A DNA stretch of 5,594 nucleotides from the IMG/VR virus record IMGVR_UViG_2534681774_000027, positions 1 through 5,594 of that record; one strand, written 5' to 3'. The notes under the pieces were generated by a model. It was not told where the DNA came from. It did no database searches and saw nothing but the letters and a program-made list of their open reading frames with translations. This DNA comes from a virus. Lineage: Duplodnaviria > Heunggongvirae > Uroviricota > Caudoviricetes. The position numbers and the translations under genes were made by a program. Of this stretch, positions 1 to 4,113 are shown in pieces; positions within the stretch are counted from its first letter, which is position 1, and the number at the start of each line of letters is the position of its first letter.

Positions 1-444
1 AGAAGTCCGGGGATGTACAGCAGAACAGCGTCTGGCGGCAAGAAAGCCAGAGCTGCGCCACTGATGCAGTCACTGTATGACTGGATACAGACTCAGATGA
101 AAACACTGTCGCGTCACTCGGATACGGCAAAAGCGTTCGCATACCTGCTGAAACAGTGGGATGGCCTGAACGTGTACTGCAGTAATGGCTGGGTGGAAAT
201 CGACAACAACATCGCAGAGAACGCCTTACGGGGAGTGGCCGTAGGCCGGAAAAACTGGCTGTTCGCGGGTTCCGACAGCGGTGGCGAACATGCGGCGGTG
301 TTGTACTCGCTGATCGGCACATGCCGTCTGAACAATGTGGAACCAGAAAAATGGCTGCGTTACGTCATTGAGCATATCCAGGATTGGCCGGCAAACCGGG
401 TACGCGATCTGTTGCCCTGGAAAGTTGATCTGACCTCTCAGTAA
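1..444 (+). CDS. IS66-family transposase, C-terminal fragment (5' end lies outside the window)
   Basis: Reading frame is open from base 1 with no upstream stop; stop at 442-444. Translation (…[51 protein letters not shown]…LLPWKV) matches the conserved C-terminus of IS66-family transposases as I remember it. Only about 147 codons are present, so the gene is 5'-truncated by the window edge. Confidence 0.8.
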
Positions 445-474
445 ATATCAATACGGTTCTGGCGAGCCGCTTAC
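1..474 (+). mobile_element. Right-hand part of an IS66-family insertion sequence; terminus inferred near 474
   Basis: Transposase C-terminus ends at 444. Bases 461-474 (ggcgagccgcttac) read inward from the end as GTAAGCGGCTCGCC, which resembles the GTAAGCG-type terminal inverted repeat I recall for IS66-family elements. The exact boundary is inferred, not verified against the left end. Confidence 0.45.
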
Positions 475-530
475 CATCGATCTGTTATGCCTATTACTTA
501 TGAGTGGTGTTACCCTCATTTGTGAGGGTG

Positions 531-567
531 ACAAAAAGAAAACCCGCAGTTTTTACGCTGCGGGTTT
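531..567 (-). terminator. Rho-independent terminator downstream of the zinc-ribbon/TM2 gene
   Basis: Perfect 10-bp stem aaacccgcag (540-549) / ctgcgggttt (558-567) with an 8-nt loop. On the minus strand it is followed by TCTTTTTGT (complement of 531-539). It lies about 25 nt past the stop of the 593-889 gene. Confidence 0.55.
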
Positions 568-592
568 GTCATTCTGATTCGCCCACTAGGCA

Positions 593-889
593 TTAGCCAT
601 ATTTGCGGGCAAAGTCTTCATCAGAGGTGCATAGATAGATAAAAAACTCAATAAATGCCACGATTGCCGGAATGAATGTCCAGCAAAAAATAAGGTAAAG
701 GAATCCTTGCCCCACTTTACCTAAATAAAATTTGTGTGCACCAAGACCACCTAAAAAGAAAGCCAGTAGTGCGGCTGTCATTCTGCTTTTTGAACTTGCT
801 GTTCTTTGAGGTGCTCCACAATTGGGGCAGGATGTGGCATCTTTATGTATTTCCTTGCCGCATCCGCGACAAAATACCATTTCACTCAT
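593..889 (-). CDS. Small membrane protein with N-terminal zinc ribbon and C-terminal TM2 domain (98 aa), function unknown
   Basis: ORF with an AGGAA Shine-Dalgarno 6 nt upstream of the ATG at 889. N-terminus carries CxxC…CxxC (CRGCGKEI…CPNCG); C-terminus has the TM2 signature LLAFFLGGLGAHKFYLGKVGQGFLYL and two hydrophobic helices. Composition is visibly AT-rich compared with the phage genes. Confidence 0.8.
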   Translation of the reverse strand: MSEMVFCRGCGKEIHKDATSCPNCGAPQRTASSKSRMTAALLAFFLGGLGAHKFYLGKVGQGFLYLIFCWTFIPAIVAFIEFFIYLCTSDEDFARKYG

Positions 890-902
890 AAAGAGTTCCT
901 TT

Positions 903-960
903 CAAATTTAAATAAGCGTTAAACCCACCACTCTTACTGGTGGGCCTCAATTTAAATTTG
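903..960. repeat. Nested palindrome: 11-bp perfect inverted repeat flanking a 7-bp-stem hairpin
   Basis: caaatttaaat (903-913) and atttaaatttg (950-960) are exact reverse complements. Between them, cccacca (924-930) / tggtggg (938-944) form a stem with a 7-nt loop. On the minus strand the hairpin is followed by a U-rich stretch (TTTAACGCTTATTTAAATTT), so it could terminate the hok-like transcript and/or act as an operator for the TM2 gene. Confidence 0.35.
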
Positions 961-993
961 GGTGCCACTTCGACCATACCCTGGCAACCGATT

Positions 994-1015
994 GACGGGG
1001 GATTGCTCCCCCGTC
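994..1015 (-). other. GC-rich stem-loop just 3' of the hok-like ORF (possible mRNA 3' structure)
   Basis: gacggggga (994-1002) / tcccccgtc (1007-1015) form a perfect 9-bp stem with a 4-nt loop, beginning about 10 nt past the hok-like stop codon on the minus strand. Hok mRNAs are known to carry stable 3' structures. Confidence 0.3.
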
Positions 1016-1024
1016 GCGGTTTCC

Positions 1025-1165
1025 TTACTGCTTACACTGTAAGAACGCCGCAAACTCCGCTCCCCAGAAGCTCATCCGTATTTCGCACAGCGAACCATGC
1101 AGCATCCAGATGATGAGGATTGCCGTCACGCAGAACGTGATGGCCGTAAGCGATTTTTGCGACAT
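1025..1165 (-). CDS. hok: Hok/Gef-family type I toxin (46 aa), absent from the supplied ORF track
   Basis: Hand translation of the minus strand gives MSQKSLTAITFCVTAILIIWMLHGSLCEIRMSFWGAEFAAFLQCKQ with stop TAA at 1027-1025. AAGGAG Shine-Dalgarno lies 8 nt upstream of the ATG (1165-1163). One hydrophobic helix followed by the SLCEIR motif and a C-terminal AAFLxCK segment, closely resembling Hok-family proteins as I recall them (e.g. …DSLCELHIK…AAFLACK…). Confidence 0.7.
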   Translation of the reverse strand: MSQKSLTAITFCVTAILIIWMLHGSLCEIRMSFWGAEFAAFLQCKQ

Positions 1166-1295
1166 AGCACTTGCTCCTTTTCCGGAGAGGCGCTAACCTT
1201 TCACTTGTCAAGGTAATGCGGTTAGGGCCTCGGTTAAACAGAAATGTTTTCCGGGGCCTTTCCACATCCGGCCTTCGGGTATTCCCTCCGACCAT
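1032..1295 (-). CDS. mok: mok-like overlapping reading frame (translational coupling frame for hok); start uncertain
   Basis: ORF in a different frame that overlaps the whole hok-like ORF and stops 7 nt before the hok stop, which is the arrangement known for mok/hok. The ATG at 1295 has no clear Shine-Dalgarno; an in-frame GTG a few codons downstream is preceded by GAAGG and may be the true start. The protein has no recognisable domain, as expected for Mok. Confidence 0.35.
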   Translation of the reverse strand: MVGGNTRRPDVERPRKTFLFNRGPNRITLTSERLAPLRKRSKCYVAKIAYGHHVLRDGNPHHLDAAWFAVRNTDELLGSGVCGVLTV

Positions 1296-1355
1296 CAGCC
1301 GAAAGGCACCCGCGCGTAATCTATCGCTTTTTTGTTACTCCGGCAATTCTGCCTG

Positions 1356-1616
1356 TTAATTCTGAGATAAAGGCAAGCTCATCTGATTGTTTCCCCTGTG
1401 TGAAGCTGGCAGCTCATGCCACGGGATACCTTCTGAAGAGTGAACGCCGGAGGCATGTTTCGATGTGAATTTATGGAAAGCTTCCAGTGTTGAGAAGCAT
1501 ACGCCGCATTCCAGATTGTTACACTGGTAATACTTTTGCCGCACGGTGTTTGAATCATTTTCCGGACGACTGGTGCGGATACGGGCAGATGCGCCACAAA
1601 GCGGACAACGGAACAT
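1356..1616 (-). CDS. ogr: Ogr/Delta-family zinc-finger late-gene transcriptional activator
   Basis: MFRCPLCGASARIRTSR…YYQCNNLECGVCF carries the CX2C-X22-CX4C zinc finger and aligns with P2 Ogr as I remember it (MFHCPLCQHAAHARTSR…). GGAGG Shine-Dalgarno 5 nt upstream of the ATG. It sits immediately downstream of gpD on the same strand, as in P2. At 86 aa it is longer than the 72-aa P2 Ogr. Confidence 0.85.
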   Translation of the reverse strand: MFRCPLCGASARIRTSRPENDSNTVRQKYYQCNNLECGVCFSTLEAFHKFTSKHASGVHSSEGIPWHELPASHRGNNQMSLPLSQN

Positions 1617-1644
1617 AGCGACCTCCCTTAACGTGGTGCTGTCG

Positions 1645-2772
1645 CTATTCTAAGTTGCTCACTCTGTTTCCGCTATCCATTCCGGGATTTTTTGCTTCAA
1701 GCTCAAGCTGAGTGGTAAAGCCGCTGTTATCAATGGTGTGCCCGGCTTTTGCAATAATCCAGTCCTGATTATCAATCTCGCTTTTAAATCCTGTTACCGT
1801 GCCATGCATTTCGGGGTAGAGTTCTGCGCGTCCACGTGCCAGCGTGATGGAGAATGATGCGGCTCCGCGTTGTAGTTGTTGCCACTTTGCCGCCGCTGCG
1901 CGTCTTGCTGCCTGCTCGTTCTGATAAGTCTTGCGTAACACAAACACATTGCCTTCCGCGCCTTCCATATAATCACCTTCACGGCTGCTGCTTTTCTCTT
2001 TTTTCGGTTTTGGCGGTTTGCGGCGTTTCACGCTGACTTTTTTCTTTTTCCCGTAATTAAGATCAAGCCAGTAAGCGCGTACCCCCGTATACGCCTCGCG
2101 GTCAGCAATGCGGAACTGATGGCGATCGCCGCTGCTGCGTGTGATGGCGAACGATGGCAACGGCTGGCCCTGTGCGTTCACGCCACCGCCGGGCATGATG
2201 AATAACAGATTACCGCTTTTTACCGTGGTGATTGCGCCCAGCATTTCCGCCATGCGCGTAAGGAAGGACATGTCGCTTTCTTCGGTCTGGTCGGCGTGGT
2301 CGATTTCGATATGCATCAGCATTTCGCTGATTTGCGGTTTCAGACCGTACCGATGAGCGATGGCGGATACCACACGCTCAACGGTCACATCATGCCAGGA
2401 CACCTCACGTTTAACGTTAAATTCATCCCGAAAATCTGCGCTTCTGGCTGAAACAGTCAGCCTGTCCGGCGGTCCTTCGTGTGCGATTTCATCGACAATG
2501 TAAGAGCCTTTTTCTGTCAGCGGTTCGCCTTTCCAGCCAATGAGAACCGTCAGGCGCGCGCCCCGTGGCGGTAGCTGCAACTGACCATCCGCATCATCCA
2601 GCGTGATGGTGAGCTGGTCCGCCTCAAATCCCCGGTTGTCGGTCAGTGACAGGCTCATCAGGCGCTCTGCCACGCCTGACAGCGTTTTACCCTCCGCGAG
2701 AATATCAAAAATCCGGCATTTTTCACGGGGGTCTGTGCTCTGACTGAGCAATTGCATGGTGGTGTCGGTCAT
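1645..2772 (-). CDS. D: P2 gpD-like tail protein (late control gene D family)
   Basis: Translation contains LSLTDNRGFEADQLTITLDDADGQL…, the lysine-rich KKKKVSVKRRKPPKPKKEK segment, and a C-terminus …GFTTQLELE…, all matching P2 gpD as I recall it. Start placed at the ATG at 2772 because of a strong GGAGGG Shine-Dalgarno 5 nt upstream; the track's ATG at 2793 is in frame but lacks one. Confidence 0.88.
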   Translation of the reverse strand: MTDTTMQLLSQSTDPREKCRIFDILAEGKTLSGVAERLMSLSLTDNRGFEADQLTITLDDADGQLQLPPRGARLTVLIGWKGEPLTEKGSYIVDEIAHEGPPDRLTVSARSADFRDEFNVKREVSWHDVTVERVVSAIAHRYGLKPQISEMLMHIEIDHADQTEESDMSFLTRMAEMLGAITTVKSGNLLFIMPGGGVNAQGQPLPSFAITRSSGDRHQFRIADREAYTGVRAYWLDLNYGKKKKVSVKRRKPPKPKKEKSSSREGDYMEGAEGNVFVLRKTYQNEQAARRAAAAKWQQLQRGAASFSITLARGRAELYPEMHGTVTGFKSEIDNQDWIIAKAGHTIDNSGFTTQLELEAKNPGMDSGNRVSNLE

Positions 2773-2928
2773 CTTTCCCTCCCTGTGCGGCATGGTCGCA
2801 TGTGCGTGCGGAGGGGGTTACTGCTTTTTGTTGTCGCCGGGTCGGGAGAACGGCGCAGGGGTGAGATTACGCGCGTGGTGGGTGATGATTGTTGCCGAAT
2901 CATTTAACGGATACAAGGGGCTGAAGCT
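2773..2928. promoter_or_regulatory. Divergent intergenic region between gpD (minus) and FI (plus); presumed late promoter(s) and possible rearrangement junction
   Basis: 156 bp of non-coding sequence between two divergently oriented late genes. Contains an imperfect Ogr-box-like element TGT-N12-AGA (2832-2849; consensus is TGT-N12-ACA) and a Shine-Dalgarno for FI. No -10/-35 elements could be assigned with confidence. Confidence 0.35.
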
Positions 2929-4113
2929 ATGAGTGAAACTCGTTTTCATGGTGCCCGTGTTACGGAAAATACCGACCTGGTAACAGCGATTAACGATGTT
3001 GATTCCAGCGTTATCGGTATCGTGGCAACGGCGGATGATGCGGACGCGAAGCTGTTCCCGCTGAACAAGCCCACACTGCTGACCCGCGTCAATGACGTGC
3101 TGGGAAAATGCGGAACAACGGGGACGCTTTATCGTGCGCTTAAGGCCATCGCAGACCAGGTGAGCACAAAGGTGATCGTCGTTCGCGTGGCTGAACACAA
3201 AGAAGAAGACGGAAAGACGCAGGATCAACTGGTTATCGGTGGTTCTGAGGATGACGGCAGCTATACGGGGATGTATGCGCTGCTTGTTGCAGAGCAGGAT
3301 GAAAGCATCGGATACCGTCCGCGTATTCTGGCCGCGCCGGAGCTGGACACGGAGGCGGTGACAAAATCCCTGTGCGTGATTGCGGGTAAACTGCGCGCGT
3401 TTGTGTATGCCTCATGTCACGGCTGTAACACGATGGCTGAGGCGATTACCTACCGCCAGAAATTCAACGAACGTGAGGTGATGCTCTTATGGCCGGACTT
3501 CATCGCCTACAACCCGAAAAGTGGCAAAAACGAAACGTTCCCCGCGCCTGCCTATGCGTGCGGCCTTCGTGCGTACATTGACCATGAGCAGGGATGGCAC
3601 AAATCACTGTCCAACGTTCCGGTTAAAAATGTGCTGGGGATGTCGAGGCATGTGTTCTGGTCGTTGCAGGCCGAAGACAGCGATGCCAACAGCCTCAACA
3701 ACAAAGAAATCACGACCATTATTCGTCGCAACGGGTTCCGCTTCTGGGGCAACCGCACACCGGAAACGAACGCCTACATCTTTGAGGTGTATACCCGAAC
3801 CGCACAGGTGCTGGCTGATTCAATTGCAGAAGCGCAGTTTGAAACCATCGACAGTCCACTGACGCCTGCGAACGTGAAGGATGTTATCAGTGCCATCAGG
3901 GCAAAACTGGATTCACTGGTTACTGCCGGGAAACTGATTGGCGCGGAGTGCTGGTATGACGTGGTGGATAACAGCACCATGGATTTACGTCAGGGACGTG
4001 TGCGTATTCGCTATAAATATACGCCCGTTCCGCCACTGGAAGACATGGAGCTTTACCAGACGTTTACTGATGAATACTTTGAACCCGCATTTGCGGTGCT
4101 GGGAGGTGCCTGA
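2929..4113 (+). CDS. FI: Contractile tail sheath protein (P2 gpFI family), 394 aa
   Basis: Length and translation (…VIGIVATADDADAKLFPLNKPTLLTRVNDVL…GTLYRALKAIADQ…) match P2 FI sheath protein (about 396 aa) as I remember it. The stop overlaps the FII start in a TGATG junction, indicating translational coupling. Confidence 0.93.
   Translation: MSETRFHGARVTENTDLVTAINDVDSSVIGIVATADDADAKLFPLNKPTLLTRVNDVLGKCGTTGTLYRALKAIADQVSTKVIVVRVAEHKEEDGKTQDQLVIGGSEDDGSYTGMYALLVAEQDESIGYRPRILAAPELDTEAVTKSLCVIAGKLRAFVYASCHGCNTMAEAITYRQKFNEREVMLLWPDFIAYNPKSGKNETFPAPAYACGLRAYIDHEQGWHKSLSNVPVKNVLGMSRHVFWSLQAEDSDANSLNNKEITTIIRRNGFRFWGNRTPETNAYIFEVYTRTAQVLADSIAEAQFETIDSPLTPANVKDVISAIRAKLDSLVTAGKLIGAECWYDVVDNSTMDLRQGRVRIRYKYTPVPPLEDMELYQTFTDEYFEPAFAVLGGA

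Follow-up and report, generated by a model that had tools for sequence, protein, structure and literature searches.

The window, the whole stretch of 5,594 nucleotides that was analysed, represents the end of an Escherichia coli prophage of the P2-like type. Its minus strand carries a TM2-domain gene (889-593), a hok toxin gene (1165-1025), ogr (1616-1356), which adjoins hok, and gpD (2793-1645), followed by the tail sheath, the tube, and further tail genes. On the plus strand, opposite the hok leader, lies a predicted gene for a Sok antisense RNA, and most of what follows concerns this gene and its relationship to the toxin that it faces.

Genomic context of the hok locus

The window opens within an IS66-family transposase gene (1-444), of which the C-terminal 143 codons are visible (PF03050, PF13817); this C-terminus lies at 13-444 on the plus strand. 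Strain 89-3156 has different DNA left of the TM2 gene, namely a Com/DNA-methyltransferase pair and then raiA and bamD, so the IS66 copy appears specific to the window's source. The TM2-domain/zinc-ribbon gene (889-593, minus strand) is flanked by the 3' end of hok on one side and by a hairpin terminator (~539-567; AAACCCGCAG...CTGCGGGTTT) on the other, and because this terminator lies directly 3' of hok in most other copies (alignment A2), the TM2 gene looks like inserted cargo. Weak Rfam matches to MicC and BSnc120 at 493-650 appear to reflect the same terminator hairpin.

The hok region itself is widespread. Its 461 bp (900-1360) are present in 1,549 of 5,426 complete E. coli genomes (~29%), some copies being 100% identical, and megablast with 900-1360 lists at least 15 further E. 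coli genomes in which the match is 100% identical. Strain 89-3156 carries the exact locus at NZ_CP027366.1 (~2,986,735-2,987,070). RefSeq annotates the locus as "Hok/Gef family protein" only, with no small RNA. The same locus adjoins ogr in the P2-like phages P88, P884B11, and 500465-2, where the coding sequence is named "MokW-like host killing", and a version that is 80% identical adjoins lom in Stx phages.

The Hok toxin and its mRNA

The toxin gene (1165-1025, minus strand) encodes a peptide of 46 aa (MSQKSLTAITFCVTAILIIWMLHGSLCEIRMSFWGAEFAAFLQCKQ) that matches the Pfam family HOK_GEF (PF01848) with an E value of 4e-7 and 29.9 bits, above the curated cut-off of 22, as expected of a small hydrophobic Hok/Gef toxin ORF; the RefSeq entry for the peptide is WP_000078916.1, "Hok/Gef family protein". 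An identical peptide, catalogued and tested, is entry 72_1621 (plasmid LRP137) in Table S2 of a preprint that reports toxicity for 42 of 45 tested homologues; the three non-toxic homologues are named there, and 72_1621 is not among them (bioRxiv 10.1101/2025.08.07.668861). The same study left Sok and Mok unanalysed, stating that they are hard to identify. In the hok coding sequence, entropy by codon position follows the order 3 > 1 > 2, which indicates that the Hok protein is under purifying selection, and nearly all of 67 unique subfamily loci retain an intact Hok ORF. Decayed copies do occur among IMG/VR contigs: in one (L094) the leader is replaced by unrelated sequence after ~+40, and another (L109) combines a frameshifted 44-aa Hok with an extra GG in the Sok tail.

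Read from the sequence, the hok promoter (1346-1318, minus strand) comprises a -35 hexamer TTGCCG (1346-1341) and a -10 hexamer TAGATT (1323-1318) separated by a 17-bp spacer. Of 58 variants, 47 have the form TTGCC[G/C]-17-TA[G/A]ATT, and the rest have different upstream DNA with comparable hexamers. The mRNA leader that follows, from +1 at G1311 to the region of the hok AUG (1311-1152, minus strand), gives a full-length match to Rfam RF01794 and contains both the 5' GGGUGCC fold-back element and a GAGG (1231-1228) that is the counterpart of the mok Shine-Dalgarno sequence of plasmid R1. Downstream, a 3' fold-back (fbi-like) element ending in GGUCGAAGUGGCACCC (975-960, minus strand) pairs with the mRNA 5' end, GGGUGCCUUUCGGCU. 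This long-range pairing of the tac/fbi type is found in the minimum free energy fold of the full-length transcript (1311 to 918), which reaches -174.9 kcal/mol with a z score of -6.8, and the 5' and 3' fold-back elements, including GGCACCC, are invariant in alignment A2. The last helix of the full-length fold is a hairpin at the transcript's 3' end (948-921, minus strand; GGCCCACCAG...UGGUGGGUUU), which we take from this fold to be the probable hok terminator in this copy; the hairpin is absent from most other copies, whose terminator differs.

A candidate mok frame could begin in the window at an in-frame TTG (1211-1209), 16 nt past the GAGG. Such a frame is not conserved: 38 of the 67 unique subfamily loci have no ORF with an ATG, GTG, or TTG start across the hok start, while 15 others start downstream of the GAGG and the remaining 14 only upstream. 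The original prediction had placed the mok initiation region at 1270-1300, but alignments with K-12 hokC, hokB, and R1-type hok, as well as the Rfam match, put the counterpart of the mok Shine-Dalgarno GAGG at 1231-1228 on the minus strand, and the ATG at 1295 turns out to be position +17 of the hok mRNA, within the 5' fold-back (tac-like) element. With that ATG taken as the mok start, Sok was sought in the wrong place, its target lying ~70 nt nearer hok than had been assumed.

A predicted Sok gene opposite the hok leader

A Sok-like RNA had been expected on the plus strand, reading toward higher coordinates over the mok initiation region, and this orientation proved correct. We placed Sok by aligning the plus-strand segment 1165-1275 with the annotated sokC, sokB, and sokW regions and with R1-type Sok, an alignment that superimposes the -35, the -10, the start, the stem arms, and the tail. 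The predicted -35, TTGCTC (1171-1176, plus strand), aligns with the -35 of SokC, SokB, SokW, and R1 Sok and overlaps, on the other strand, the hok Shine-Dalgarno GGAG (1177-1174). The predicted -10, TAACCT (1194-1199, plus strand), follows 17 bp past it, and the same hexamer recurs in phage 933W, 6 nt upstream of where sokW is annotated to start. The window has one instance of the combination TTG-N20-TAACCT, where 0.03 are expected. Half of the consensus positions are matched by this promoter (6/12), and known Sok promoters are likewise non-consensus.

Generic searches passed the gene over. A sigma-70 and terminator scan of 880-1420 called no promoter, and its sole terminator-like site was the hairpin in the hok 3'-UTR, on the wrong strand; the Sok hairpin described below, with its weak U-tract (UUUCC), was not called either. 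Because the thresholds of such a scan exclude a promoter that matches 6 of 12 positions and a terminator with a tail of 3 U, we regard its outcome as uninformative rather than as negative evidence.

The predicted Sok RNA (~1207-1267, plus strand; ~55-61 nt) was located by a covariance model and by alignment to sokC, sokB, and sokW; by comparison with these annotated Sok RNAs, it would start near G1207 and end at ~1261-1267. It is complementary throughout to positions +45 to +105 of the hok mRNA, the GAGG included, and consists of a single-stranded 5' tail of ~17 nt (1207-1223), a G+C-rich, terminator-type hairpin (1224-1260), and a short U-containing tail. The hairpin folds with 10 + 5 bp: the lower stem pairs 1224-1233 with 1251-1260 and includes the G.U pairs G1225.U1259 and U1230.G1254, and the upper stem pairs 1236-1240 with 1245-1249 around a GAAA loop. 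The stem arms are GGCCUCGG and CCGGGGCC, and the tail, UUUCCACAU, is a weak U-tract. The fold of 1200-1270 on the plus strand reaches -27.6 kcal/mol (z = -4.15), with 0 of 200 shuffles as good. The original prediction had reported no clean terminator hairpin in the interval; this stands for the stretch before its T-run, where the fold of 1270-1340 on the plus strand gives z = +0.16, but not for the strong hairpin at 1224-1260, which lies inside the same interval.

Rfam locates the same region from the opposite strand. RF01794 ("sok") matches the window at 1311-1152 on the minus strand over the full model (1-157) with 46.2 bits (E 3e-8), a clear homology at a score below the gathering score of 59; all tested members of the subfamily score 33-47 bits on this model, so the earlier suggestion that the antitoxin may be divergent was a fair one. 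The RF01794 model has the orientation of the hok leader: its match at K-12 hokC lies on the minus strand (L002 502-654, 118 bits), with sokC on the plus strand (553-611), and at hokB/sokB and at hokW/sokW of 933W the match is likewise on the hok strand with sok opposite. The real Sok should therefore correspond to the middle of the match, read as its reverse complement. The score under the Rfam cut-off would also explain the absent ncRNA annotation in RefSeq, and it is because the family scores under this threshold and the model sits on the hok strand that standard pipelines miss Sok.

We accordingly use a covariance model in the Sok sense, built from SokC, SokB, SokW, and R1-type Sok only and run against the window with filters off. 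It returned a single significant match, 1213-1261 on the plus strand (27.4 bits, E ~2e-5 under a rough calibration), the next best having an E value of 2.7. At the level of sequence, then, the locus holds an antisense gene with its own predicted promoter in the hok leader and its own terminator hairpin. Covariance searching and folding of the plus strand had both been named in the original prediction as ways to settle the matter; the former, run in the correct orientation, finds a Sok homologue, and the latter yields the hairpin at 1224-1260, which no shuffle of 200 equals.

Conservation and strand preference of the Sok region

Related loci were collected with an exact scan for a 20-mer, the conserved 5' element GGGTGCCTTTCGGCTGATGG; the scan anchors the sample on that element and yielded 5 genome loci and 119 viral-contig loci; one spurious locus (L013) and the interrupted L094 were excluded. 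The resulting 58 unique variants come from E. coli genomes, phages, and IMG/VR contigs, and column entropy was computed over 60 unique sequences. The TTG of the Sok -35 is invariant in all 58 variants (TTGCTC in 40 and TTGCCT, TTGACT, and TTGTCT in 6 each), the -10 is TAACCT in 57 and TAATCT in 1, and the spacer is 17 bp in 52 and 18 bp in 6. Entropy is 0.02 bits per column in the -10, 0.02-0.11 in the lower stem, and 0.00 in the 3' tail. Between the near-invariant -10 and stem, the 5' tail block of Sok (1208-1223) is hypervariable (0.89 bits per column; one invariant column out of 16); in the hok mRNA this block lies just downstream of the GAGG, and its variability may reflect diversification of Sok specificity. 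As the Sok region also encodes the hok leader, constraints on the hok mRNA could account for some of its conservation.

The hairpin separates the two strands. All 41 unique predicted Sok RNAs form it, and the upper stem exists in at least four sequence versions, every one of them paired. RNAalifold on these 41 sequences found one compensatory pair only; formal covariation is scarce because there is no variation in the lower stem and indels distinguish the upper stems, and per-sequence folds were used for the comparison in its place. The Sok sense is the more stable in 41 of 41 variants, with a mean of -26.9 kcal/mol against -16.9 kcal/mol in the hok sense, because the G.U pairs U1230.G1254 and G1225.U1259 turn into C.A mismatches on the hok strand. 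This asymmetry argues against a hairpin that serves the hok mRNA alone.

We consider it very probable, on this sequence evidence, that the prophage locus is a complete hok/sok module with a predicted Sok gene at 1171-1267 on the plus strand. The original prediction had raised the possibility that the antitoxin is degraded or absent and the toxin an orphan, a view that sits poorly with the Sok-sense match at 1213-1261, a promoter found in 58 of 58 variants, and a strand bias in 41 of 41. The orphan-toxin idea is not supported, and the locus appears to be an ordinary one.

Alternative explanations

The strand preference and the promoter also bear on a different account of the same features, in which the hairpin and the apparent promoter are structure of the hok leader only, no plus-strand RNA is made, and an orphan toxin is silenced by folding of its mRNA. 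Such an account fits the position of the whole segment inside the very stable fold of the hok transcript (z -6.8), but constraint on the hok strand would not be expected to yield a hairpin that is ~10 kcal/mol better in the Sok sense in 41 of 41 variants. It would also accommodate a -35 that overlaps the hok Shine-Dalgarno sequence and would be conserved regardless, a promoter that matches the consensus poorly and was not called by the generic scan, and a literature search that found no transcript evidence for the Sok of this Hok subfamily; against these stand a TAACCT that is near-invariant at a fixed spacing from TTG and equals the sokW -10, and a model made from the Sok RNAs of other subfamilies that finds the plus-strand site. 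We judge this account improbable.

We attach still less weight to the idea that Sok is a recently decayed remnant in this copy, its promoter and terminator weakened, within a family that normally has a working antitoxin. Chromosomal hok/sok loci are sometimes inactivated, and the interrupted leader of L094 and the frameshifted Hok of L109 are instances of damage to related copies. The short U-tract in the window might be read in the same way, but it is invariant across the family and thus no lesion of this copy; the window agrees with the family majority at every hexamer and stem position, the leader from +1 to +160 is identical in the window and three other loci (L125, L001, and L066), and the perfect matches over 900-1360 in at least 15 other genomes likewise speak against a private loss. 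Decay of this particular copy is, in our view, very unlikely.

The elements from which the original prediction had sketched a Sok gene are real but belong to other features. TTGTCA is present at 1205-1210 on the plus strand, where it is the antisense of the Sok start region and of the possible mok TTG start codon. The T-run given as 1327-1334 exists, its exact extent being six T (1328-1333), and it falls within the 17 bp that separate the -35 and -10 of the hok promoter on the opposite strand. As had been noted, no -10 accompanies this TTGTCA, the sequence 16-18 bp on (1227-1234) being gcctcggt; with no -10 and no structure beyond that of shuffles, the proposed promoter and terminator fail, and the predicted Sok has its promoter at 1171-1199 and its RNA at ~1207-1267 rather than a -35 at 1205 and a terminator at 1330. 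A longer antisense RNA that covers the hok 5' end from this TTGTCA to the T-run can be set aside as the least probable reading, for although both motifs exist and a weak Sok terminator could let some read-through reach 1330, no -10-like hexamer follows, plus-strand structure over 1270-1340 is at chance level, the T-run falls in the most variable part of the locus (the hok promoter spacer, at 0.92 bits per column), and homology puts the Sok start, not a -35, at 1207.

Comparison with known hok/sok systems

The predicted hok/sok module shares its layout with hok/sok (parB) of plasmid R1, namely the pairing of 5' and 3' fold-back elements, the GAGG in the leader, and a Sok promoter over the hok Shine-Dalgarno region; the R1 mechanism, the mok Shine-Dalgarno GAGG, and the tac/fbi arrangement have been described (PMC9841398). 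R1 Sok and the predicted Sok are alike in their length of ~60 nt, free 5' tail, and one long hairpin. The two loci differ in that the Hok of the window has 46 aa rather than 52, its locus scores 46 bits on RF01794 against 87 for an R1-type locus, its leader is without the R1 insertion, its mok frame is not conserved, and it is borne by a prophage instead of a plasmid.

The Sok RNAs of K-12 hokB/sokB and hokC/sokC, at 57-59 nt, align base for base with 1207-1267 and have stem arms GGCCUCGG...CGGGGC, and the SokB tail, ending in GGGGCCUUCGUCUUU, is a poor U-tract like that of the predicted Sok. The K-12 loci carry annotated mokB and mokC, score 110-118 bits on the Rfam model, and are fixed in the chromosome, whereas the locus in the window is phage cargo.

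Another prophage-encoded and experimentally validated system, hokW/sokW of the Stx2 phages 933W and Sp5, has a Sok -10 identical to that predicted here (TAACCT), with a -35 of the TTGCCT type at 17 bp. SokW has been detected by northern blot, its antitoxin activity depends partly on RNase III and Hfq, and mutations around the sokW -10 abolished that activity (PMC8621323). HokW, in contrast, is a HokD/RelF-like toxin of 51 aa from a Hok cluster other than that of the window's Hok, the annotated SokW, at 71 nt, carries a longer hairpin insert, and the hokW locus scores 113.5 bits on RF01794.

Proposed mechanism and significance

In the model that we propose, the minus strand would give a hok mRNA of ~390 nt with its +1 at G1311 and its 5' end paired with the 3' fold-back element, encoding the 46-aa Hok membrane toxin, and the plus strand would give the Sok antitoxin from the promoter TTGCTC-17 bp-TAACCT with a start near G1207. 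As in R1 and hokW/sokW, relatives for which expression of an unstable Sok and neutralisation of Hok by RNase III-dependent decay have been shown (PMC9841398, PMC8621323), the free 5' tail of a constitutive but unstable Sok would pair with the processed hok mRNA, the Sok-hok duplex would be cut by RNase III, and translation would be blocked. Since Sok would be constitutive and short-lived and its duplex with hok cleaved by RNase III, Hok would be made only when Sok synthesis stops; for hokW/sokW, Hok is made upon prophage induction (PMC8621323). We infer the transcription of Sok, its exact RNA ends, its RNase III dependence, and its biological role by analogy with these systems.

The mok frame is not conserved, and the R1 mechanism, in which Sok blocks translation of a mok frame that overlaps hok and is translationally coupled to it, may therefore not apply literally to this subfamily. 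A speculative extension, which we think possible though rather unlikely, is that this subfamily (Hok cluster 72 of bioRxiv 10.1101/2025.08.07.668861) needs no mok, that Sok acts only by forming a duplex that RNase III degrades or by refolding of the leader, and that Sok tails have diversified into specificities that do not cross-react among co-resident prophages. For specialists in type I toxin-antitoxin systems, the non-conserved mok frame and the variable Sok 5' tail offer minor leads.

What is new is limited to a predicted, unannotated Sok for a divergent, prophage-borne Hok subfamily. A very common E. coli prophage hok locus is found to carry a recognisable Sok gene, a result whose significance is mainly one of annotation, and the exact predicted coordinates of Sok are now available for probing or deleting the antitoxin.

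Related loci in Stx phages

We considered whether the 80%-identical matches in Stx phages were hokW/sokW and rejected this identification, as they are a second locus, which adjoins lom and is unannotated in 933W. The copy of the hok subfamily in phage 933W lies at L005 3512-3674 (NC_000924 ~45,511-45,673), between lom and the ORF that follows it, and scores 35.6 bits on the Rfam model; the annotated hokW/mokW/sokW of the same phage are separate, at L005 16461-16735. In Shigella phage 75/02 Stx and in O157:H7 TW14359, the position adjoining lom carries an annotated Hok/"MokW-like" coding sequence. Phage 933W also has a match to sRNA-Xcc1 (RF02221) at L005 19137-19225, near the end of ant, which at 69.1 bits is above the gathering score and is unrelated to Sok.
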